64,000 bases of DNA from assembly GCF_018977255.1 (NCBI RefSeq), contig NW_024704745.1, positions 20,026,001 to 20,090,000 of the forward strand, given 5' to 3'. This DNA is from Callorhinchus milii. Taxonomy: Eukaryota. The notes beneath the pieces were generated by a model. The model was not told the DNA's origin. It saw nothing but the letters and a program-made list of their open reading frames with translations, and made no database searches. The translations under genes and the position numbers were made by a program. Positions 6,076 to 21,200 of the stretch are shown here, one piece after another (position 1 is the stretch's first letter; each line of letters starts with the position of its first letter).

Positions 6076-6585
6076 GCAGGTGCTGTTTACTGCTCAGAGT
6101 TATCAATCTTGGTATGTAGCAAGCCTGTATACATAAGCATGGTCACAAACCTAACACTCCAAGTCATGCCTTCCAACAGTTGTAGTATACTTAATTAAGG
6201 CCCTTATTTATGCCTTTGCAAAAAGAAATTCTAGCTTTGAAGCTGACTGGCTCTGGAGTGTTTTAGCAACAGACCAGTGCAAGCTGGTGCTTACTCCTGG
6301 ACTTTGCAAATGGGCTGGTTTATATAAAAAAAACTTTTTTGTTGCATGAAGAGGAACTTTTAGAGTTGTTTGGATACATGTTTATGCTTTACAATCTCTT
6401 CCTCAAAATGCACTCGTCTATCAACACCCCCAACACTGGATTACCGCCCTTTTGTCCACTGCCCCACCCACCCCAACAACTTGGGTGGCCAGACAGTTGT
6501 TTGAAGCAATTTGAGACATCCAACGTGAGATACTGTATATAAATTATAAATGTGATTTAGAATTCCAGCCATTATCTATCTTCTA

Positions 6586-7105
6586 TCTATACTAATAAAA
6601 CAGCAATGTCTGTCTGCTTCAAGAAGGATCTCAATAACCGATTGACATAGAGACATAATACCTCATCAGAAAGTCTTACTTCTCGGAGTGACATGGGCAT
6701 ATTTGTTTATCAGTATCTCCTTTGGTTCATGAGTTATTTTCAGTTTGGGTCTTTTCACAAGTTACACCCGGTGGCCGCCGAGTCAAAGTGGTGCTCTGTC
6801 ATTGTGTGTCACAGAGCACTTACGTATGTACGTATGCACTGCACTTACATCTGGTGGCCGCGCTGGCTGACCGTGGTGCTGTGCATCCAGCGTCACGGAG
6901 CATACACGTAGCCAAGCGGCGCGAACAAAATAACACAAATTAAGCTAAGCCACGGCAACAACAAAATAAAATTTTTAAAGCACTGAGTCCTCCCAAAAGG
7001 ACTTCTCCTACAGGAGTCCTCCCAGGTGAGTATAGATAAAAATTAAATGTCTATATCAATCTACATTCCATTTGGATCCTATGGTTGCGAATGTAGCTGC
7101 TTCTA
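6586..7105 (+). mobile_element. Non-autonomous Helitron-like element, copy 1
   Basis: Begins A|TCTATACTAATAAAA (Helitron-type 5' TC end); homologous to copies at 24.7-25.1, 39.8-40.0 and 51.3-51.7 kb, one of which ends in hairpin + CTAG|T. Confidence 0.65.
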
Positions 7106-8230: not shown

Positions 8231-9009
8231 GAAACTCAAATCAAAAATGTGTGTTGATTATAATTTCCTTTAATTTTTAAGCAAATTGTGTTCGAATTAT
8301 CTCATTTGCCTCACACAAGCATTTCCTCAAATTGACTTGTACGTTAGATCTGCCGGGCGAATCTCTTCGAATTTGTCCATTGTGTTCACTTGGGGTGCAA
8401 TATGACCATTTCATATGACCTGAGCACAATGCTTCATCACAACACATGTGTTCTCAAACATCAAACTCCACCATTGTTCAGCGCTCTCAAATGCTACCCT
8501 GTGTGAAGGGTGCTATATAAATTCAAATTGTTTGAAACAACAGGTTAAATCAAACTATGTTAATAGATTGTTGTCTTCATGAGACCATTAATTGCAATAT
8601 GTTGCAACTTCTGTAACTTCTGTAATGCTTCTGTAATGCCTGGTACTTTTCTATTGTGAATTACACCACCCCCAAGAACAACAAGTGGTGGTATAGCCTG
8701 AAGGGTAAAATCCAATTGAGTGGAGGATATATAAAACAAAAACAATTCATTAAAAGAGGGACGATAAGTGCAAAAAAAGTATCAATGAATGAAATGGAGT
8801 TCTAGAATTTATAAAATAATCTACCAATAGCCTCATGATGGGCCATCACTGGAGAGCAGAATTTTGAAGAAATAGGTGTAGACAGATAAATTCAATGATG
8901 TCTGTGTTGCTGGAGTCAGAGGAAGGGAATATTGTCTGTGGAGTGGAGGACGCCAGGATTGCCTGTGTGAAGCGTGAGTGGTCTGGATTATTTCCATGAT
9001 TATCTTCAC

Positions 9010-9235
9010 AATTTGGGGAATTAAAAATCCCTTGGCACTATTCAAAAAGGGAAGGGTGTTTCTCCCAGTGTCTTGGCAAACAATGCCCAAGATAAAATTG
9101 GTCATTCCCTTCATGGCTGTTTGTGGGACATTGCAGTGCGCAATTTATGCACATGTTTGCCTACAAAATACAGTCACTATGCTTTATATTAAATCCTATG
9201 AAGTGCTACATCAAATGCAATGATTTATTATTACT
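9010..9235 (+). mobile_element. DeuSINE 3' half
   Basis: AAATCCCTTGGCACTATT...GGCTGTTTGTGGGACATTGCAGTGCGCAA...CAAATGCAA(TTA)n. Confidence 0.7.
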
Positions 9236-9737
9236 AATCTTTTCACACTCAGAACAAACCCATTAGGATACACGACATTTTTTAAAATTCAAAATTCAAA
9301 TTCAAATTGAAAAATTGCTTGGAATCCTGAAATATTCAGGATCTTTGTTTACCTCCTGTCAACCAAGCGCAGCGTTTTCAAATAGTCTAAATTGCACTGA
9401 GCTGGTTTCGGCAGTTACATGCTCAAGTGTTTGTTGCAATTAACTTTTGATTAAAATCTTGTCATCCAACAAGCATCGCCTCTCTGATTTACTGACTCGG
9501 CAACCCTTCCCAACTGAACCAGAGCGGGCAGCGTTCGAGAAGATTAACCGTGACCCTTAGAACCCGCACAAAGTGTGGCAGATTTGAAACCTTCTGAAGG
9601 GTACGCGGCGGGTGAGGGTGGGGGGGTGGGGGGGTGGGGGGGGGCTCTAAATGTTGAAAGGTCAAGCTTCTAAAACGAATGCTCCTCACTCCTGAAAGAG
9701 CGACACTCGGTAGAATTGAGACGAGATAGCATTCTCC

Positions 9738-9838
9738 GTCCATCCATCCATCCGTCCGTCCGTCCGTCCATCCATCCATCCGTCCACCCGTCCTTCCGTG
9801 CTTCCTTCCTTCCTTCCATCCTTCCGTCCTTCCTTCCC
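9738..9838. repeat. Compound (TCCA/TCCG/TTCC)n microsatellite
   Basis: Direct reading. Confidence 0.9.
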
Positions 9839-10394
9839 GACACCCCAGATCTCAAAAAAAAAAAAAATTTTTTTGCAAATGTTTCAAATGTTGTTGTTGT
9901 TTTTTTGCCTAACACTGGCCAGTCTGACGTGTGAAATAGGTCCAGCGCAGGTGAGTTCGATGTGCAATCGGGGGTTTGAGCTGCGGTCCATTCGCCCATC
10001 TCCAGCCTTGGTGGGTTGTGTGTGTGTTTTTTTTGGCCCCATCTGCCACCTCCTTGACATTGCGCGGTAGCCCCGCTACGTGTCGCTGCAGCGCCTGTGC
10101 GCGCGTGTGCGTGTGTGTGTGTGAGAGGGAGAGAGGGAGGGTTCCTGTGTGTCGAGTCCCTGCAGTGCACACAGATGGTAACTGCTGTAGTGGAGGCTGG
10201 AAACCCCGAGAAAAGGTATTTCATCATTTTATCTTTGAACTCACCCCTCACCCACCAAACCCCCCCCCACCCCCCACCGCCGCCATCACCACACCCCTCC
10301 GAAACTGGGCATACGGTGGGAGGAGGAGGAAGGAGGAGGAGGAGGAGGTGATGGTGCTGAGAGCCTCAACATAAACAGTCGGGGCAAAAAAAAA

Positions 10395-10439
10395 ATCATC
10401 ATCATCATCATAATAATAATAATAATAATTTCCCCCCCA

Positions 10440-10474
<35 letters not shown>
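10395..10474. repeat. Compound (ATC)n(ATA)n and (CA)n(GA)n microsatellites
   Basis: Direct reading. Confidence 0.9.
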
Positions 10475-10636
10475 CGCTCGGTGTGAGAGTGCAGCGGGTC
10501 CCGCACAGTCCAACCCCCGTCACGGTAACCGGGACCGCAGTGTCGCCGCTCTCGACGCGGACATATCATTCTGCAGCTTCTCTTACTCCATCTTAGATTT
10601 TCCTCTCGGGCGGGCGGTCGGCGCGCGGGGCGGCGG

Positions 10637-11020
10637 GTGAGTGAGTGAGTGGGTGGGTGTGTGCGGGTGAGTGGGGGAGGGGGTGGGGGGTGTGGGTGGG
10701 TGAGGGGTGAGGGGGGGTGTTGGTGAGGGGGGGGAGGGGGGGTTTGGGTGACGGGGGTGAGTGAGGGGTGAGGGGTGCGGGGGGGGTGTGGGTGAGTGAG
10801 TGGGTGAGGGGGGGGTGGGAGGGAGGTGAGGGGGGTGAGGTGAGGGGGGTGGGAGAGGGTGTGGGTGAGGGGGTGGGAGGAGGGGGTGGGAGGAGGGGAG
10901 GGGGTTGAGGGTGAGGGGGTTGGGGGGAGGGGGTGGGAGGAGGGGAGGGTGAGGAGGTGTGGGTGGGGGGGTGAGTGAGTGGGTGAGGGGGGGTGGGGGT
11001 GAGGGGAGGGGGAGGGGGTG
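10637..11020 (+). repeat. G-rich low-complexity tract (GGGTGA(G)/GGGGA units)
   Basis: Almost C-free on the + strand, immediately after the donor at 10636. Confidence 0.85.
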
Positions 11021-11199
11021 CGGTCGGTTGTTTAAGCCGTCACTTTGAATGGGACTTTAGGCCTCGCGCCTCCCCCGAGCGGCCGAGTTTGAGAGGCCTC
11101 ACCGGCCCCGACCGGTCCCCGCGTGCGGCTCAAATTTAGCCCGAGACAGCGGCGAGCCCGAGGCCTACAGACCGCGGCCATCACCCGGGCCCCGAGCAG

Positions 11200-11702
11200 T
11201 GGGGGGGGTTTGCTGAGGGGAGGGGTGGGGGGGGTTTGCTGAGGGGAGGGGGTGGGGGGGGGTTTGCTGAGGGGAGGGGGTGGGGGGGGGTTTGCTGAGG
11301 GGAGGGGGTGGGGGGGGGGTTTGCTGAGGGGAGGGGGTGGGGGGTGGTTTGCTGAGGGAGGGTTGGGGGGGTTTGCTGAGGGGAGGGGGGGGGGGGTTTG
11401 CTGAGGGGGGGTGGGGGGGGTTTGCTGAGGGGGGGTGGTGGGGGTGGTTTGCTGAGGGGAGGGGGTGGTGTGGGGGGTTGCTGAGGGGGTGGGGGGGGTT
11501 TGCTGAGGGGAGGGGGTGGGGGGGGTGTTTGCTGAGGGGGGTGGGGGGGGTTTGCTGAGGGGAGGGTTGGGGGGGGTTTGCTGAGGGAGGGGGTGGGGGG
11601 GTGGTTTGCTGAGGGGTGGGGGGGGGGTTTGCTGAGGGTGGGGGTGGGGTGGGGGGGGTTTGCTGAGGGGAGGGGGGGGGTGGGGGGGGGTTTGCTGAGG
11701 GA
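11200..11702 (+). repeat. G-rich minisatellite, unit ~GGGGGGGGTTTGCTGAGGGGAGGGGGT
   Basis: About 20 tandem TTTGCTGAGG cores separated by variable G tracts. Confidence 0.9.
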
Positions 11703-11811
11703 AGCTGCTGTGGCTGTGCTTTCTGAGCACAACTGCTGCTCTTTCTGAATCCTCGCCTGGAACCTGTGAGTTACACTGCAAAATTCTGCCATTGAATTTT
11801 TTTTGTGTATA

Positions 11812-11977
11812 AATATATATATATGTGTGTGTATATATGTGTGTATATATAGATACATATATGTATCTAGGGCTCAGGTGATTGATATATGTGTGTGTGT
11901 ATATATATGTGTGTGTATATATATGTGTGTGTGTATATAAATACATATATGTATCTAGGGCTCAGATGATTGATATT
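11812..11977. repeat. (TA/TG)n microsatellite with duplicated ATACATATATGTATCTAGGGCTCAG..TGATTGATAT unit
   Basis: Unit occurs at ~11852 and ~11941. Confidence 0.85.
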
Positions 11978-12604
11978 TTTGCAGTTCGCACGAGCGATGT
12001 GCTTTCCGTAAGAGAAATGGAGTGAAATGTGTGGTACATTGGCGACGTGCAGGCGTTACGGAGTGATTTTAAACCGTTGGGGAGAAGCTGGGCGAGCTCT
12101 TTTCTTTTGAGGTAAATTGCCCGTGTGGTTACGGTGCAGCAGCAAGCTTTGTGCCATCGGAAGTCGTCGGACGCGTGCTCTGGCTGTGCTTCGCCCACCT
12201 CACGTCCAAGTGTTCCTTGGGCAAGTTTGTACATCTCCTGAAAGCTATTTACACACCAGCAATCACTGGTCACGTGTATGCTGTGAAAATGGCTAGAGTT
12301 GGTCCTGTTAATCCTGTATTATTTCATGCGGAGACAGGCTGGCTCTGCTTTTCCCCAGATGTGTAATAATAACAATAATCCTTGCAGTTGATAAAGAACC
12401 TATGGAGTCAAAACATCTCAAAAGATTTCATGCGCAGTTGCTGTCATCCATCGGTCATCTTCCCAACCCCATCCTTCTTAACCTCCAATTCTCTTGATTC
12501 CAACCCCCAGCTCGGGTGCAAACCCTTCACTGTCCAGCGCCTCAGGACATTATTCGCACGTGAAAAGCGCTAAATACATCCAGTTTGTTGTCGTTTTTGT
12601 TGCT

Positions 12605-12910
12605 GTTAAATGTGGTGATTTGAGTATTTGTATGCAAATGTGGCAGCCAATTTGAGCACACCAATATTCCACAAACAGCATTCAAAGTGAAGTTTTTTTT
12701 TATCCTGAACACTGTTGGCCAGAACACCGGGAGAAACTCCCTTGTTTCTGAAATTGATCACAGGATCACGAACATCCACCTGAACAGAGAAATGGGACAT
12801 TGGGTTAATATGTCTTGTAAAGGATAAATGTAGTGCTCCCAGCTAGGACTTCAAACTCAAGTGCTAAAATGGGGCTTGAATCCACAACCTTTTGACCCAG
12901 ATATCTGAGT
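12605..12910 (-). mobile_element. DeuSINE
   Basis: Reverse complement contains GTTGTGGATTCAAGCCCCA head and CAGGTGGATGTTCGTGATCC Deu core. Confidence 0.65.
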
Positions 12911-13749
12911 GATATGCTGAATAGTCTCCTCCTGTTCCTATTTTCTTATTAGTAATTTGAGCCAGGCCAATACCGTTATTCAGTTCTAGTTTAACGTCAG
13001 ACCATACTAGTGCTGTTTTTCTTTCTTTACAATTATTTTCATTGAATTTTTTTCTCCTGGGTTAAATTAATCAAATAGTGTTCCTTTCGAGGCATCAAAA
13101 TTTTAAGGGAATGTCGTGCCTGTTTCCACATTGAAGTTGTTGATTTGGATTGGGGTGAAGATGTTTGTCTATCCATGGTTGCTGGATCTAGTGTCATTTT
13201 TTTGGATTTTATTTTACATTTACCCTCCAAAACACCATTGGAAGACCAATAGGACAGACAAACCACTCATCTGCAAGCCATGAGAAAACATTTTATTTGG
13301 TCTCATTCTCCAGTTTATCTTGTTTACGTCTCCCTCTACTTCCTGTGGCAAGTCTGAGATTAAGAACGGCAAAGCAGTAAACTTACCAGGCAGCTAGAGT
13401 AGGAAGTATTGCTCATTTCCTGACAATGTAACTGCTTGTCTTCCATCATCACCAAACCTGGTCAGCAGTCTTCCAGATAAATTGGTCATTCAACTCATGA
13501 TTATTTGAGGGATATTCCTGTGCAAAATGGAACCATAAAAAATTATGCCACAGAAGAAAGGCATTCGGCCCATTGTCTCTGTACTGACTCCTTGAAAGAG
13601 CAGTCCTTTCAGTCCCATTTACCTACCTTTTCCCCATACTCCTGAAGCTCAATCCTTTTTAGTTGTTCTTTAGTTAAACTATTCTCCTAGATTTCTCACT
13701 CCTGGTTTGGACTTTTTCAACCTCCCTGACCTCTCTCTCAAATTCACCA

Positions 13750-14350
13750 AATCAATATGCAACCTTGGTGTCTAGCTCCACCCTCAGCCCTCCTTTCTTC
13801 CTCACATCCAGTCTCTGACCAAAACTTATTTTCTTCACCTCTGCCACATTATCCACCTCCACCCCTACCTCACTGTAAATATCACCAAAATCCTTATTCA
13901 AGTCTTATCAAATCCTGGCTGGATTTTTTAAATGCACTCCTCGCTGTTTTCCCTCGCTCCACCATTCATAAACTTCAACATCCAAAACTCTGCTGTCTGC
14001 ATCCTTGTCAGCACCAATCTTTGCATGTTCATCAGCCGAGTTTACACCAGGCTCCATTGGCTCTCTGTCTCTCAGCAGATCAATTTCAAGGTCTCAGCCA
14101 CACCACTTCACGTCCTAGTACCTCCTTATGTTTCTGATTTCCTACCTCCATTCTTCTGCTTACCCCTCTGATCGGCTGACTCAGGCTTGAGTGCATCACC
14201 ATCAGTGGGCGAACTTTCCATTTCTATGCCCCTAACTTCTGGAACTCCTTCCCTCAACTCATTTGTCTCGGCTCTCTCTGTCTTCAATTCCCTCCTTAAG
14301 ACCTACCTCCAACTGGCCAGAGATCACCTCTTTTCCCCCTCCACTATCCA
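13750..14350 (+). mobile_element. L2 LINE 3' fragment (degenerate RT C-terminus)
   Basis: Translations such as KLQHxQNSAV..TRLHWLSVSQQINFKV are typical of the L2 ORF2 C-terminus. Confidence 0.75.
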
Positions 14351-14624
14351 CCAGATTGGCATTTGCCCTGTCATTTTAAAGCACTCCAAAATGTTATATA
14401 TAACCTAAGATCGCAGTTTTGAGCAATACTTAAATAGCTGTCTCATTTTTGTACAAAAAATAGCAGTTGACTACATATTAATTACTGGAAAGAGCATTGG
14501 AATGTTTTGATGTGATAGGATGCTATAAAAATGGAAGTTCTTCTTTCTTTGATATGCAATTAATATTTGTTTTTCTGCATTAATTTGCAACAGAGAAGAA
14601 GCGGAAGACTTGAACTTGGACAGG

Positions 14625-15707
14625 ATGGAAGCCGGCACGTCTGGAGAGAGCGCGCCTGGGATTAACCATTTGTTCATAGCATCCAGTGGAGAGTATTGCA
14701 TTAAAGTCTATGATGACGAATCAGAAAGGTACTCCGTATTACAGGTATCTGATGACGAATCGGACATCACTGATATCTCAACAGAGGATCCGGACTCTGA
14801 ACTAAATGACACTGGATCCAGTGATCAAGGTTGGAGCAACAGCTTCACTCCAATCCAGATCAATGACTTCTGTGGAGAAGCAGGAGTGTTGTTCCCTCGA
14901 GATTTCGATATCTCCGAAGCAACCCCGCTGGATTATTTCAGCCTCTTCCTACATTCCAACTTGTTCAGCGATTTTGTGGAGCACACAAATAGCTATGCCA
15001 GATGGAAAATGGGGCATGAGGGGGCAGCAGATGCCAGGTGGGTGGATGTCAGCGAGGTTGAAATGAGATGCTACATTGGCCTCAATGTACTGATGGGAAT
15101 TAATCAGCTGCCGAACTATAAACTGTACTGGAGCCGGGACAACTTGTTTGGAAATGATGGGGTGAAGAGTATCATGACCTGCAATCGTTACGAAAAATTA
15201 ACTGAATACTTTCACGTGAGTGACAGGCTGTATGACACCAGTGGACATGACTCGAACTTTGATGCCCTGTACAAAGCACGGCCGCTTCTTGACACAGTTC
15301 GCGCCAGCTTCAAAAAGCTGTATCGGCCGTCCAGGTACCTAAGTGTAGACGAGGCAATGATTGCAATGAATGGTAAACTGACGTTCAAGCAGCACATGCC
15401 TCCGAAGCTCAACAAAGGGGGGGTTAAAGTGTGGATGCTGTCGGATGCTGAGAATGCCTACCTGCTTGATTTTGAAGTCTTTCATGGGCGGCGCGGCGTT
15501 AAGACCTCAAAGAACGGACTCAGGTACGAAGCTGTCAGAAAATTAACCAAAGAGCTCGAAGGCCAAAATCACTGTGTGTTTTTTGACAGCTTTTTCACGT
15601 GTGAGAAATTGATGATGGACCTGCTGGATGCTGGGATATATTCTTGCGGGATGGCTCAACCCAACCACAAGGGTTCCCCAAGGATCTCCAGCAGCTCACC
15701 AAAATGA
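14625..15707 (+). CDS. piggyBac-derived transposase (PGBD4-like), N-terminal ORF (360 aa from ATG 14625)
   Basis: Acceptor TTTTTCTGCATTAATTTGCAACAG| at 14593/4 and AGG-ATG-G Kozak. Acidic N-terminus, then piggyBac motifs TPLDYFSLF, W..V...EMRCYIGL, YWS, MTCNRY, SVDEAM (first catalytic Asp), FFDSFFT (second Asp), GIYSCG. Confidence 0.85.
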   Translation: MEAGTSGESAPGINHLFIASSGEYCIKVYDDESERYSVLQVSDDESDITDISTEDPDSELNDTGSSDQGWSNSFTPIQINDFCGEAGVLFPRDFDISEATPLDYFSLFLHSNLFSDFVEHTNSYARWKMGHEGAADARWVDVSEVEMRCYIGLNVLMGINQLPNYKLYWSRDNLFGNDGVKSIMTCNRYEKLTEYFHVSDRLYDTSGHDSNFDALYKARPLLDTVRASFKKLYRPSRYLSVDEAMIAMNGKLTFKQHMPPKLNKGGVKVWMLSDAENAYLLDFEVFHGRRGVKTSKNGLRYEAVRKLTKELEGQNHCVFFDSFFTCEKLMMDLLDAGIYSCGMAQPNHKGSPRISSSSPK

Positions 15708-16321
15708 AAAGAGGCGAGTATCGAGTGCAACAGAAAGGGCACTTAACAGCAATACTATGGCAAGATACCAAGCAAGTGGCGATGATGAGCACTCTGAGTG
15801 ACCCAATGGAGGAGATGTTGATCCAGCGAAGGCAGGGGCAGGAGGTGATTGAAGTCAGGCAACCTCACTCAATCTATGTCTTCAACAAGTATATGAATGG
15901 AGTGGACAGGTATGGACCTCTGCGTGCCCACTACCAGGTTGGAAGACCAGGCAAAGAACACTGGAAAAACATCACCTGGTTCGTGATCAACTGTGCCATC
16001 CTGAACGCATTTATCCTCTACAAAGAGACCTCGATCAGAGTCAACAAGAAGAAGAACTATTCTCACCTGGACTTCCGATGCGAGTTGGTGCGGCAACTGA
16101 TCGGAGGTTACAGCAGCCGGAAAAGAAGAAGTGTTCCAATGGACGACAACTTCGTTCTGCATAGAAACGTGGTGATGGGACACGAGTCTGTGCACATGGG
16201 CTACAAAAGACGGTGCAAAGTTCACCTGCAGAAAAAGGTGCGAAAGGAGACAGTGTACGGATGTAAAATCTGTAACATTCATTTGTGTAAAGACGGATGT
16301 CACTTTCAGTATCACAAGTAA
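15671..16321 (+). CDS. piggyBac-derived transposase, C-terminal part in the -1 frame
   Basis: GFPKDL..KMKRGE, WQDTKQVAMMST, YMNGVD (third catalytic Asp), INCAILNAFILY, FRCELVRQLI and Cys-rich end RCKVH..TVYGCKICNIHLC..GCHFQYH*. Joined to the upstream ORF it gives ~565 aa. Confidence 0.85.
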   Translation, partial: GFPKDLQQLTKMKRGEYRVQQKGHLTAILWQDTKQVAMMSTLSDPMEEMLIQRRQGQEVIEVRQPHSIYVFNKYMNGVDRYGPLRAHYQVGRPGKEHWKNITWFVINCAILNAFILYKETSIRVNKKKNYSHLDFRCELVRQLIGGYSSRKRRSVPMDDNFVLHRNVVMGHESVHMGYKRRCKVHLQKKVRKETVYGCKICNIHLCKDGCHFQYHK

Positions 16322-17419
16322 AACTCATATGGGGGAGAAAAAAACAATTCATTGCACATGGACTGTAAACAAGTTCTTTCTTATACATCTCAACTCTTAT
16401 TCAAGTGACAAATGCTCAAATTTACAAAAAGCAGGTATAGGTGGACAGTTTAACAAAAATGTTTTTGTACAGCATCCAAAACGGCGCCACAATGTTGCAT
16501 TTTTCCTTTTGAACCAACACAAACATTCTGCTTTGTAGGAATGTTATGTATCAGTGTTAAATACATCACTAGATTTGAGCGAGAACTGTAGGTATAGTCC
16601 ATACTTTACCCAAACGGACCAGGACTGCTGTGAACTGAAAAGTGTATTGTACAAGTGAGCCATGTGCATTGAAATGCTTATTTCATAAGTGATATATATT
16701 TTGGCCAGACTGGATAGGCGCTCAAAGCATTCATCCGTTGTTTGAAGGGCTTCTATAGCAGAGACTGGTCGGATGGACTCAGCAAGACCTCAAACAGTGA
16801 CCTCAACAACTGAAGTCTTTCCAACAATCACACAGTGGCCAGTGTTAACTGAGGTGCCCCATGAACAGAATAGAACAATAATCGAGAAATTTCCTGGTCA
16901 AATGAAATACGTTCCGTACAGATCCTGTATGAGTCAGATTAATTCAATCCAATGGTTTTGGATTGCAAAGCCATTTAAAAGCAATGGCATATCAGGAGGT
17001 TTACAGAATCTACACAGAACTGTTCTATTCCTGTAAAAGACTTGGTTATTAGTGCCCTCCTCTTCCTGTCATCAACATAATGTTGCAGATGACCTAACTC
17101 CCTTTCTATGATGTGACGTGGTGTGTAACTACACAAAATATTCAGGGACCATATCACAAGAGCAAATGATGGCAATGAACGATTGACAGCTGGAGTTGTA
17201 TGCACTCTTTTTCCACACGCACCATAGGCAAGTGCAGCTGCTTTCTTTCTCCTGCTTTTGTCTTGTTCTGTTTAGTTGCCTGTAGCAGGGAGTTGCTATA
17301 GCCAGAGGTGAGCTGCGATGGAATCGTATGACACGATCACATGGGTTTGGATGAAGAAGGCTCTTCCATTGAATCTCGTCCTTCCAAAATGCCCATCTTA
17401 ATATCTTCTTGCTACAATA

Positions 17420-17810
17420 TTAGAGCTGAAATGGGTGCTTGCGCAACTGTGCAGCCTGGTTATCTTTTACAGCTTTGGTTAGTCGCTGTGTAAAGAAATA
17501 CTTCCTGGAATCTGTCTGAAAATGACACTTTGCAATCCTGTGACCTCTTATCCTGCTACCTTGATGTATCTGAAAGCATTGTTCTGGGTATGCTTTCTCA
17601 ATCCCATTCAGCATCTTGTATATCTATATAAGGGCCCCTCTGAGATGTCTCTTTTCCAAGACTAAAGAGCTCCAGATCCGAGCTTATCCCTGTAACATGG
17701 GATCATCCACATTGCCCTTTTCTGTACTGCCTCTGGGGGATGGGCAGTCCTTATGCTCCGGAGACTAGAACTGTACACTATGCGCCAGATGTAACTTCGC
17801 CAGAGCCCTC
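17420..17810 (-). mobile_element. CR1 LINE 3' fragment (degenerate)
   Basis: Minus ORF ...RIRGH....FQTDSRKYFFTQR is the typical CR1 ORF2 C-terminus. Confidence 0.7.
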
Positions 17811-17811
17811 A

Positions 17812-18200
17812 TAATAATCATCCTTGTATAGCGCCTTTCAGGTCGGGAGGACGTCCAAAGCACACAAGATTCACTGTGAAGTGGAGCAACTGTACATCTG
17901 TGGGCGAACGGGGCAGCCAATTTGCGCACAGCAGTGTTCCACAAACAGCCATAAAGTGAACGACCAATTCTATTTGGGGGATTGTTGGCCAGGACACCAG
18001 AAGAAATTCCCTTCTCTTTTTTGAAGAGTGCCATGGGATCTTTAACGTCCACCTGAACAGATAGACAGGTTTAACGTCTCATCTAAAGGATGGCATCTCC
18101 AACAATGCCAAACATCCCCAGCTCTCCTTTGGAGTGTCAGCTTAGACTATATGCGTTCAAGACCTGACGTAGGGCTTGATGCCCCAATCTTCTGAGAGCT
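17812..18200 (-). mobile_element. DeuSINE, near full length
   Basis: Reverse complement: CAGGTGGACGTTAAAGATCCCATGGCACTCTT...GGCTGTTTGTGGAACACTGCTGTGCGCAAATTGGCTGCC...GAAAGGCGCTATACAAGGAT. Confidence 0.85.
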
Positions 18201-21200
18201 TGAGCTCAACATCTAGGGATCAGAACTGATTTGGCAATGTAGACCGGTATTGTGTTTGCTTATTGCTGCCTCCCTTTTTGGACAGGGTGAGCAATGAACA
18301 CTTGTAGGTCTTTTTCAACGTCCTCCTTGATGAATTCTAACCTGTCAATGGAGTACATATACCTACTATTTTTACTACTTGTGTGCGGTAACTTACATTT
18401 ATCTGAATTGAACTTTGTTTGTTTGCTCAGATACTTAGCCTGTTCAGCTCTCTTTGTAAGATCTTGGCTGCCTCCTCTGATTTCACAGTAACCCTGGTGT
18501 CAGGAGGAATGCAAACTGAAATGCTATTGCACATGATTTGAGCTGCACTGTCATTAGGCTTATTCCGCTGCATGTAATGGAGAATAGCACTCTGTATATA
18601 TTGTAATAGCTCCCCTAAGGGATTCAGACCCTGTGATTTTCGATCGATGCTGCTCGCTTCATTTTTGAGGTGGGGTGGGGCAGTCATGAGGAATATAAGC
18701 TGAATGCAAATTTATATTTGGAAACAAATCGAATTGAGAAGTGTAACAATTTACTTTCTAATCCGTTCATCACCAGCCAATACTGACCAGGTTTGTTGAT
18801 ATCTTTGCTTATTTTAATCTTTAGTCAATGTTGGCAGTTTAGAAATACATCTCTTACTAAAACTGATTTTTTTTGAAAAAAAGTCAATAGCCTTGCTGCT
18901 CTCTACAATTATCACGTATTATAATTTGAAGAAGTCGTATGCTTTATTTGTCATCATGAGCTGCTTTTTGTGATATTTATTATAGAACGATTTATTTATT
19001 AAAGATCGGGTGTTGAAGGGGATTACAACACCACTGTTCTGCATGTAGCAAATGGGTTCAAATGCAGTACAGGAAAGTAAACTAGATGTCTCTTGTCTCT
19101 GGCAGTTTTCATGCCTCTTTCATGCTGATGGAGCAATTTAACATTGGTTCCAGCAGTGCAGAGATTCCGATTGGGAAGCTCAATTATACTGTGTTCCCTG
19201 TATTGCTTTTTCCAGGGGCTGAGCAGACCCTGCAAATGTGTAGCTAGGTGAATGCGCAGAGCAATGCTGTCGGGCATCAAATGCTGATAAATGGTTTAAT
19301 GATATTAAAGGGCCAGGAATGTAGACCGCTCTGTAGTTAACATTCAAGAGCCTAAAATTATATTTTTTTAATCGTTAAAAGTTCTCTGGAATCAGCTGCG
19401 GCAACCCCAGATTTATATTGGTATGAACAAATGTATATTGATTTCATTCTGAAACCAGTCCTGGAGATGTGCTCAGGAGAGTGGCTCAGAATCAAAGCTA
19501 CTTACTAAAAACTGCACTTTTAGCATCAATTCATGTGCAGTATGAATAGGACATACGTGTCCTAATTTAATTGAACTTTAGTATTTACAGCATAGAACAT
19601 ATGGCGCAGAGCTGCCCATAGTTTGTCATCATTTGGGCAACCAACCTTGTTCAAAAAAAACCAAATAAGAGCTGGAATGGGAGATGAACAATGGTGCAGG
19701 ACGGTTACTTTCTGAGGCTGATTTAGCCACGTATAGACGGGGAAGAGTAGAGGGAGCTTTACTTCACATCAAATGTATGCTACACCCAATCCATCTGATT
19801 CTGTACCTGGGAGGAAAACATTCTATTCCTGGGTACTGAAGTCTCTCCTGTTAGTGAGGACAATATTTACAAAAAAAATCCAATGTCTTTAGTCCCAATG
19901 AAAATTCTTGTAAGTGTTTTGAATCAGTGTAGTAAATGTTGATACTTAGGTGTCCATGAAGAACACTTAAGTGAAAATGAAGAAACATTGCCTGATTTTA
20001 GACAATTCTTCTTAATGCTAAGCATTAAATCATACCAATAATGACAGCAGAACAGAAGTACAAAAATATGTTGGTTTGTATTTAAATACAGCCAATACCA
20101 GTGAACCAGTAGGTCAAAATAGCTGAGTAGTTGTTACACATTCGATGCACAAAAAATGCTTTATGAATAAGCACATTATTATGTATTTTAAATAACTATC
20201 GTCTTTTGCAAAAATGTAATTTTTAGGTTTAATTTTGTTTTAGATTTTCTTCTGTAATGTTCTATATTTTTGGATATTAAAATTCTTATTTTCAAATGTA
20301 ATCTGTCTGTGTTAATTCTGGCTGAGATGTGCACAACCATTTTATACTTTAACCCAAAGGGAAGTTACTCAAACGATTTTGGCTCTTGTTCACTGGTGTT
20401 TCTCCTGTGTTAATCCTAAACAGCCTGCTGTTTTCATTAAGGGTAGCAGCTCTAAATATTAATGTGCTGTAATTTTGAAAAAAAAATCTAATCTCACAAT
20501 TGCTTCCAGTAGAACTTCTTGCATACTTGGGATTAATTTGGTAATTTCTAACAGTATTCCTTAATTCAGGAAACCTTCAGTAATCACACAGAAGTACATC
20601 CGTGCTCTTGACCATCACGTTTGGGGCAGAATTCCTGCAGATCAATGTGAGATAACTCAGATTATCAGAAGGAGTACCCACTCAGATTTCCTTACTTAAG
20701 AAACCTGTTAGAAATGACCATTTTATTGGACCCCAATGTAAGTCAAATGTCATCTATTGCTGTCTAACATCTCAATTATTGTTGCCAAAATATTCAAGAT
20801 ATATATTGACGGCAGTACATTCTTAATTCCACTTAAAATTCCAAATCTGGGTGACATAAATCCATTCAATTTACAAGAAATATTGTACATAGCCACCTAA
20901 TATTACTTGTCTGGGGGAGTTTTTTTTAAGTCAAACTAATCAAACATTGTGAAATTTCTGAACCACTTGGCTTTAAAGCCATTGTCTATTTTAGCTTGTA
21001 TCAAGATTAATGCATTTTGAAATGTGAGTTAACTTTGTCTCATTTTGTGTCTGTCTGTTTCTAACAAAAAGGTTGAAATTAGCACATTGGCATGCATTTT
21101 GTGTCTAAAATTTACATCATTTGTATTTTCTCTATCTTAGAACTTCAGTCCTACTAAATGCACAGTTTATTTAACTTCATTTTTGAACCTAGTAAATGTT

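Follow-up and report, generated by a model that had tools for sequence, protein, structure and literature searches.

Is the piggyBac transposase frame in this window (the whole stretch of 64,000 nucleotides from Callorhinchus milii that was analysed) the relic of a mobile element or a working gene of the host, and, if a gene, what does its protein do with DNA? A preliminary description had proposed a lineage-restricted domesticated gene driven from a CpG island, which is now supported by its single copy, by spliced contigs and by an orthologue in a second species, and we regard it as almost certain that this is a domesticated piggyBac transposase gene. The fuller account that we favour on balance is a single-copy, spliced, piggyBac-derived host gene under strong purifying selection, whose protein would bind DNA without integrating it.

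Gene structure and promoter region

The gene has MAP7-family, BCLAF3-like and SH3 exons as neighbours in Callorhinchus milii. The following features were located.

9500..12300, no strand: CpG-rich promoter region, broken by G-rich tandem repeats (CpG observed/expected 0.84-1.06, four patches)
10122..10215, + strand: upstream exon A, coding (ATG 10175, 13 codons and a further 2 bases; donor GTATTT 10216), from uniquely mapping loose contig ends of runs X1 and X8
10633-11020 and 11201-11701: G-rich tandem repeats within the CpG-rich region
11986..12111, + strand: upstream exon B, which adds no codons to the main frame (donor GTAAAT 12112), from the unique loose end of one X9 contig
14570..14593, + strand: splice acceptor of the transposase exon (AG 14592-14593)
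14594..16321, + strand: exon derived from the transposase; protein of 565 aa when begun at ATG 14625, of 589 aa when begun in exon A (Pfam PF13843; P0001/P0036)
15670..15673, + strand: one base lost from a G run, splitting the frame
16322..17853, + strand: 3' untranslated region of at least 1.5 kb, to about 17853 by the lengths of the X1 and X8 spliced contigs

Splicing is documented by three junction contigs from two studies (the runs are presumed to be RNA, none being recorded as such), which join exons of the island to 14594 with GT-AG borders, all three using the acceptor ahead of it. This acceptor had been correctly predicted, as had the start of the frame 31 nt into the exon in a good Kozak context (A at -3, G at +4). 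The predicted donors fared otherwise: the contigs use GTATTT at 10216 and GTAAAT at 12112, and none of the three uses the GTGAGT sites proposed at 9950, 10636 and 11765, which lie outside the assembled stretches. Those positions were each one base low (9951, 10637 and 11766), and GTGAGT occurs eight times, not three, in 9000-14600, five of the eight inside the G-rich repeat 10633-11020, at whose edge the second proposed donor sits. The three sites may serve as donors for further upstream exons.

Non-coding first exons, as had been expected, do exist (the 12111 junction and three 565-aa RefSeq isoforms), but the commonest upstream exon among the junction contigs is exon A, which codes for 13 residues, the same 13 with which RefSeq isoform X1 (P0036) begins. 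The 5' end of exon A at 10122 presumes contiguity of the 93 loose letters of X8, and that of exon B is placed by a pyrimidine tract and AG preceding 11986, read from the sequence. The first kilobase of the 3' untranslated region is unique in the genome. Run X10 is fragmented, and spans neither a junction nor the frameshift.

The CpG island is real as four patches, with observed/expected ratios of 0.84 (9500-10120), 1.01 (10440-10660), 1.06 (11020-11200) and 0.98 (11980-12300) over a background of 0.33-0.34, but it is interrupted by the tandem repeats. Three other assignments were ruled out: the island is not the BCLAF3 promoter, as the BCLAF3-like exons sit upstream on the same strand; it is not a copy of the downstream gene's promoter, with which it has only common repeats in common; and exon A does not fit as the exon that opens the SH3 coding sequence, the phases being 2 and 1. 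A search of Rfam gave just four tRNA-like matches, all outside the gene.

A frame split by an assembly error

The transposase frame had been taken as continuous, and a frameshift was thereby missed: in the window it is split near 15670 into a 360-aa frame (14625-15707) and a second frame ending at 16321, which correspond to positions 1-243 and 240-349 of PF13843. The whole protein covers 1-349 of the 349 positions (E 4e-83), and carries, at its C terminus, a cysteine-rich domain encoded in the same exon as the transposase. The split is an assembly error, because the missing base is present in all six of the runs that cover it (seven were examined) and because the older RefSeq proteins of Callorhinchus milii are whole (565/589 aa). 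Possibly the assembled animal carried a rare null allele, which would leave the status of the gene unchanged. The current RefSeq protein is shortened to 384 aa, and this truncation together with its PGBD5-like name makes a living gene appear dead. In RefSeq, ‘PGBD4-like’ and ‘PGBD5-like’ are names assigned automatically and do not state orthology.

Copy number and flanks

Mobile elements are recognized by terminal repeats and several copies, neither of which was found here. A DNA search of the genome returned one match from one candidate, the gene itself, while a repeat family of 80% identity, used as positive control, gave 2214 candidates. The PF13843 search gave five matches from nine candidates, two being this gene, and the other piggyBac sequence in the genome consists only of two distant fragments and a PGBD5-like exon, the exon-sized match at C3:77.59 Mb, which we take to be PGBD5 by resemblance. 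In agreement with the preliminary description, no TTAACCC/GGGTTAA is positioned as termini around the gene, and of the 115 pairs in 12300-19500 the 25 longest include no terminal inverted repeat, a search that heavily decayed ends might escape. The 3' flank as seed gave no repeat family in the genome. A search for the ends of related elements yielded just four distant loci (24-28%), all from metagenomes, and none from genomes; the ancestral element's ends were not recovered from relatives, and no cognate binding sites for the protein were found. The flanks do contain multi-copy repeats (depth peaks), as had been described, while their naming as L2, CR1 and SINE is presumptive and goes by resemblance.

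Conservation and selection

One other species has the gene at the same site with an open frame (runs X13 and X17). X13 contigs span its intron, exon and 3' flank, and among the 12 indels listed of 46 the only coding one is the frame-restoring base; X17 covers 14552-16328 as a single piece and shows 80 differences and one gap, and the acceptor stretch 14552-14593 differs at one position. Of 76 differences 37 were classified, none in DDD or zinc-finger codons, and these comprise 33 synonymous and 4 replacement changes in 14602-15341 (the 5' 43% of the frame; p<1e-12), giving a dN/dS of 0.03-0.05 over 14595-15341 for this one species pair. The gene is thus under strong purifying selection in two species, as shown for the 5' 43% of the frame. 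The outcomes that would have spoken for a transposon, namely near-identical copies with terminal inverted repeats, an empty site in the second species or a lack of spliced transcripts, were not encountered.

These data decide against a dead or broken transposon copy. The split frame in the window and the 384-aa RefSeq protein would fit such a pseudogene, but the base present in the covering runs, the low dN/dS and the spliced contigs refute it, leaving next to no probability for this reading.

Among the matches listed (33; the best 120 of 134; 150; 0 of 1219) there was no protein named as from a shark or ray and none of 53%-99% identity, many of the entries being unnamed and the set of 150 excluding relatives above 50% identity. 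The gene is likely absent from sharks and rays, to judge by these comparisons.

Ancestry

In trees, the gene nests among mollusc-type piggyBac transposases. Its nearest relatives among the matches listed are piggyBac-like transposases of molluscs and marine metagenomes (for example Saccostrea P0062 and Pecten P0067; 45-53% identity), whose C-terminal zinc finger is near-identical to its own; compared as proteins, they differ from it in that D450 and the contacts to hairpin and target are kept.

A candidate for an orthologue is NeoPGBD of ray-finned fishes, domesticated in this case once, in the jawed-vertebrate ancestor. Both proteins keep DDD (10/11 NeoPGBD rows), share N347S (11/11) and have lost R372 (11/11; Gln in six), and the best match of gar NeoPGBD in the genome is this gene (37-40%). 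However, an AU test with 28 rows rejects a single clade with fish NeoPGBD (p=0.002), identity to NeoPGBD is 35-39% compared with up to 53% to mollusc-type elements among the matches listed, and the zinc-finger pattern agrees with the mollusc clade. The neighbourhoods differ too, as seen in zebrafish, the one fish species compared: zebrafish si:ch211-130m23.5 adjoins vcana-hapln1a (PMC9210284), and none of 29 Xlink matches in the genome lies on the contig of this gene. Common descent by a single domestication is therefore already largely refuted and very improbable, and the sequence comparisons show an origin separate from fish NeoPGBD.

Residues, domains and fold

The DDD residues 242, 321 and 428, equivalent to D268/D346/D447 of the T. 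ni transposase, are kept, so that in the D268-D346-D447-D450 motif only the fourth position is altered, to Gly. The replacements are Y283H, P288L, N347S, T370M, R372Q, K375H, D450G and Q451P, at sites whose transposon residue is retained by 17-18 of 18 close relatives, and Y439F, at a site where 18/18 retain Y. In the T. ni transposase the hairpin is held by Y283 and Y439 and target DNA by R372/K375 (PMC7351741), and N347 also contacts target DNA (PMC8642419). The count of 8/9 at nine sites is biased, the sites having been chosen after viewing this protein.

Across sites conserved in 17 or more of the 18 relatives, 20/73 are changed in the catalytic core and 5/69 in the DNA-binding domains (Fisher p=0.002), with 1/15 changed in the C-terminal cysteine-rich domain, while the relatives pooled are changed at 2.3% and 3.8% of core and DNA-binding sites. 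The skew is not unique to this protein, since the distant transposases P0009 (21/73 vs 9/69) and P0080 (19/73 vs 12/69) also show it; others do not (16 vs 14 and 9 vs 9 changed sites). The predicted structure (pLDDT 86.5) resembles T. ni transposase 6X67 (Z 37.6, rmsd 2.7 over 404), and the predicted fold also matches 9C0F.

Binding or cutting

On its residues, the protein very probably cannot transpose. With the parts that grip DNA kept and the residues for pasting lost, it likely acts by binding DNA and not as a transposase, and probably binds DNA more than it cuts it. In the scenario that we propose, an element of the clade now found in molluscs would have inserted between the BCLAF3-like and SH3KBP1-like genes in the chimaera stem, its frame would have been captured via the acceptor preceding its ATG, and the ends of the element would then have disappeared. 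Transposon-like character would have persisted in the dimerisation/DNA-binding and zinc-finger domains while contacts to the hairpin intermediate and target DNA were replaced; given this pattern, the protein may sit as a dimer on sites like the old transposon ends, as a nuclear regulator or scaffold that cuts little or not at all.

Two observations count against a pure binding role: a binding protein need not keep DDD, and R372A/K375A and D450N in T. ni leave excision unchanged or raise it (PMC8642419, PMC7351741). The main rival, unlikely as it appears, is a cut-only nuclease, in which DDD still nicks or excises without pasting and the host uses the breaks. The kept triad in a well-predicted piggyBac fold is compatible with this, positions 347, 372, 375 and 450, replaced here, are the ones changed in T. 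ni mutants that excise well but integrate poorly, and for Hydrolagus colliei, a chimaera, meiotic chromatin diminution has been reported (cited in PMC12203969 and PMC5959867). Against it, replacement extends to the hairpin contacts (Y283, Y439) and to the proline of the omega loop; D450 has become Gly, not Asn, and every D450 mutant tested showed lower excision (PMC2533014); the DDD codons lie outside the classified differences of the second species; and PGBD4 has DDD without demonstrated activity. A specific form of this rival, by analogy, would be a chimaera PiggyMac, descended from a piggyBac domesticated at least 170 million years ago as a cut-only nuclease serving meiotic chromatin elimination in Hydrolagus colliei, with the same residue changes as engineered excision-only piggyBac; taken jointly, this is a long shot.

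An improbable third reading is a transposon suppressor, a crippled transposase that occupies piggyBac ends or poisons dimers of active transposase. Kept DNA-binding and dimer domains with an eroded core are what a dominant-negative protein would be expected to have, but the genome holds no related intact piggyBac (besides the PGBD5-like exon, two distant fragments) and by an earlier description has few DNA transposons (PMC4350176), and the dN/dS would point to a stable role and not to an arms race.

Comparison with known systems

Like NeoPGBD, the gene is single-copy, has one transposase exon without terminal repeats, is of unknown function, comes from a related piggyBac clade, keeps DDD and the cysteine-rich domain, and has N347S and a lost R372 (PMC5381638); NeoPGBD likewise has a low Ka/Ks of 0.094 (PMC5381638). 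It differs in clade, neighbours and zinc-finger pattern, in length (565/589 aa vs 649-682; PMC5381638), in the altered D450 and omega loop, and in the splicing of upstream exons shown here. A further mark of NeoPGBD is a conserved 365-bp stretch upstream of its frame. With PGBD4 of primates and KOBUTA of Xenopus it has in common an intron-free frame, DDD, the cysteine-rich domain, restriction to a lineage and unknown function, whereas their lineages and ancestral elements are others (PMC5381638), neither having been included in the trees. PGBD5, by contrast, has introns inside the transposase and no cysteine-rich domain.

As in CSB-PGBD3 of primates, the transposase exon is entered by an acceptor just ahead of the frame, but here 13 host-derived residues are added without a host domain, and the triad is complete. 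Beyond the transposase exon no continuing host gene was seen, P0036 contains no second Pfam family, and a search for fusions among longer proteins, weak evidence in itself, gave 0 of 1219 candidates. Ciliate PiggyMac/Tpb2, of the excisase type that cuts DNA in programmed elimination, similarly retain DDD although they do not spread, and the residues replaced here include the positions of engineered excision-only piggyBac (R372A/K375A/D450N); the chimaera protein, known from its sequence, has lost more hairpin contacts and is of unrelated origin.

Significance

We found no description of this gene in the literature, although the 101 PGBD-like sequences in the supplement of PMC5381638 may include it. 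It represents a piggyBac domestication that took place independently in cartilaginous fishes, a lineage absent from the main text of that 2017 survey, and its constraint (0.03-0.05 for part of the gene in one species pair) is tighter than the 0.09-0.43 of the surveyed groups (PMC5381638). It also calls for a database correction, the current RefSeq protein being shortened by an assembly error and carrying a misleading PGBD5-like name. Together with NeoPGBD it makes two separate domestications of related elements, both of which keep DDD and change N347 and R372, and the pair offers a natural experiment on the disarming of a transposase.

Reading frame and assembly error

The piggyBac-derived gene is built from the following exons:
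up to 10215, + strand, exon A (donor GTATTT; loose ends of the contigs of runs X1 and X8, one study)
up to 12111, + strand, exon B (donor GTAAAT; loose end of the contig of run X9, another study)
14594-16321, + strand, transposase exon (ATG at 14625)

As given in the preliminary description, the transposase frame is preceded by an acceptor AG (14592-14593) and its ATG sits 31 bases into the exon, but in the window the frame breaks near 15670, its two pieces carrying Pfam PF13843 positions 1-243 and 240-349. This frameshift is an assembly error. One extra base is present at ~15670 in all six of the runs covering the site (seven compared), namely X1, X2, X8 and X9 of organism A and X13 and X17 of a second species, organism B, and the base absent from the assembly belongs to a G run, single-base loss from which is a typical long-read error. 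The older-annotation C. milii proteins are whole (XP_007889898.1, 565 aa, P0001; XP_007889897.1, 589 aa, P0036), while the newer XP_007889897.2 (384 aa) is shortened exactly where the window frame predicts; the older 589-aa model is the correct one. The current RefSeq protein (384 aa) is named PGBD5-like, and its shortening was traced to the error at 15670-15673. The transposase exon (14594-16321) has a CpG O/E of 0.64, against 0.33-0.37 in its surroundings, which may reflect low methylation or coding constraint.

Promoter region and splicing

The upstream CpG-rich region reported earlier consists of four patches (O/E 0.84-1.06 vs 0.33 background) with G-rich tandem repeats between them. A 500-bp G-rich tandem repeat inside the promoter region (11201-11701; period about 28) lacks CpG and has many G runs, and G-rich tracts resembling it occur in a second island at 43-45 kb. 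The three GTGAGT donors singled out by the preliminary description (9951, 10637 and 11766, each given there one base lower) proved to be a selection, as GTGAGT occurs eight times in 9000-14600, mostly within a repeat. No junction from any of them to 14594 was seen among the three contigs entering the exon, which join it from elsewhere, each loose end mapping once in the window; these donors may serve exon B or further exons upstream. Because there is one genomic copy and the X2, X13 and X17 contigs continue through the intron into the exon, splicing into 14594 is the plain reading of the junction contigs, with the runs presumed, by guess, to be RNA. Exon A has an ATG at 10175 and contributes 13 codons and two bases in frame, in agreement with the start of the 589-aa protein. 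Exon B, as read from its sequence, has only short upstream frames and thus gives the 565-aa form. The transcript extends to at least about 17853.

Copy number and genomic neighbourhood

No TTAA-CCC termini surround the frame, as previously noted, and a DNA search of the genome, with a repeat at 80% identity recovered as positive control, gave one match of one candidate. The protein search found the gene and one exon on contig C3 (31% identical), and the PF13843 search gave five matches of nine candidates, two of them the gene itself and two others distant fragments. The C3 locus (L003, G000:C3:77586429-77586824) is an exon-sized piggyBac-like frame, which we take to be probably PGBD5. Locus L007 (G000:C1672:5482-7306), on a small contig, is a broken distant piggyBac 3' fragment, 24% identical to the subject protein. 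The neighbours are:
C4:20.007 Mb, same strand as the gene, MAP7-family exons, upstream neighbour
C4:20.022 Mb, same strand, THRAP3/BCLAF1-family exon, between the MAP7-family exons and the gene
43000-45400, second CpG island, downstream of the gene
52268-52459, same strand, SH3-domain exon (Pfam SH3)

These are presumably MAP7D2, BCLAF3 and SH3KBP1, the second island and the SH3 exon being read as the SH3KBP1 start. In human the three genes are adjacent, with nothing known to lie between the last two. The subject gene has its own CpG island and lies outside BCLAF3. The segment at 2230-2480, continuing to about 5100, has no Pfam match for the exon itself and follows a BCLAF3-like family match 4 kb before the window; it probably holds the final exons of that BCLAF3-like gene together with its 3' UTR. 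At 6575-7100 lies a repeat some 530 bp long (2214 genomic candidates, about 80% identical) whose ends, in our reading, look like those of a non-autonomous Helitron, and four tRNA-like Rfam matches within repeats (24476, 28526, 37438 and 55331) are probably SINE heads.

Relationships

The nearest proteins, 45-53% identical, come from oysters, scallops, clams and marine contigs, and NeoPGBD, the domesticated piggyBac gene of ray-finned fishes, is 35-39% identical (120 of 134 rows listed). A quick tree (62 hand-picked of 302 rows) placed the gene sister to a Saccostrea group (96*), with NeoPGBD as a separate clade. In a careful tree (28 rows) the Saccostrea link is weaker (89/73), and a starred branch (98/96) still parts the gene from NeoPGBD. 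One clade with NeoPGBD was rejected by the AU test (p=0.002), for a group named only after the first tree was seen; the trees were built without PGBD1-4 and KOBUTA sequences. The molluscan affinity carries no claim on donor or transfer direction. No shark or ray orthologue appeared among the protein matches listed, which is suggestive only. Zebrafish NeoPGBD is described as adjoining vcana and hapln1a (PMC9210284), and in the genome search none of 29 Xlink matches lies on C4, the contig of the subject gene. NeoPGBD was also found in bichir (P0095, Polypterus senegalus), grouping with the fish genes (support 100), and is thus older than the Neopterygii range of PMC5381638.

The gene bears all PGBD-gene marks tested; identities as a mobile element, NeoPGBD or PGBD5 were rejected, as it lacks the marks of each. 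Shark, chimaera and milii are absent from the main text of a survey published in 2017 that covers nine PGBD groups (PMC5381638). Literature searches found no published description of the gene, which so far stands in databases under automatic names only.

Orthologue and selection

In organism B (0.17 of words present), contigs reach across intron pieces (11-14% different), the exon and the 3' flank, which marks the site as orthologous. X17 covers 14552-16328 in a single piece with 80 differences (4.5%) and one gap; the flanks are about 10% different (by subtraction across two runs). Of 76 X17 differences 39 were listed, and the 37 within 14602-15341 were classified; set aside were an intronic difference, that at 16168 and another found only in X8. 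These 37 comprise 33 synonymous and 4 replacement changes (dS 0.23, dN 0.007; p<1e-12), giving dN/dS of 0.03 (NG86) to 0.05 (transition-weighted) for this stretch and one species pair, in rows that stop short of the catalytic codons. The N-terminal tail holds three of the four replacements, and one of the 33 synonymous changes (15221) occurs in organism A runs too.

Substitution rates in the chimaera group are slow, so dS 0.23 suits a split ~173 Ma ago far better than one of 15 Ma. PMC11521621 places the crown of the chimaeras at about 173 Ma or earlier and the common ancestor of living Callorhinchus at about 15 Ma. Judged from dS 0.23, organism B probably belongs to a different family of chimaeras, which would make the gene about 170 My old or older.

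Protein fold and proposed function

Structure prediction (pLDDT 86.5) confidently yields a piggyBac fold whose N-terminus is disordered and which matches 6X67 with Z 37.6 and rmsd 2.7 over 404 residues; alignment to the T. ni transposase gives the triad D242, D321 and D428. Where 17-18 of 18 close relatives are conserved, the protein carries Y283H, P288L, N347S, T370M, R372Q, K375H, D450G and Q451P, and also Y439F (T. ni numbering). Of 143 conserved sites, 25 are altered in this protein and 1-11 in any one relative, and replaced sites number 20/73 in the catalytic core vs 5/69 in the DNA-binding domains (p=0.002), a skew absent from close relatives. Because two of four more distant transposases skew similarly, this core clustering is supportive, short of proof. 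Like the subject gene, NeoPGBD has N347S and has lost R372 (11/11 NeoPGBD rows), a convergence, since the trees separate the two; both sites are also altered in five other transposases outside both groups. A basic stretch at residues 499-502 could be a nuclear signal.

In the T. ni cryo-EM study, target DNA is held by R372/K375, and losing both allows excision without integration (PMC7351741); low-integration variants repeatedly carry N347S and D450N (PMC8642419). With these contacts replaced, the protein would have lost integration ability. A nuclease that only cuts would fit this pattern, but Y283 and Y439 hold the hairpin and an omega loop melts TTAA in the T. ni structure (PMC7351741), and in another study every D450 mutant tested lowered excision (PMC2533014); excision by way of a hairpin has probably suffered as well, and such a nuclease seems rather unlikely. 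By analogy with PiggyMac (PMC6143343), a role in meiotic chromatin diminution, as reported for Hydrolagus colliei (cited in PMC12203969 and PMC5959867), may be imagined and is very improbable. Selection would instead maintain end-type DNA binding, and the replaced residues somewhat favour a binding regulator or scaffold as the function of the gene.
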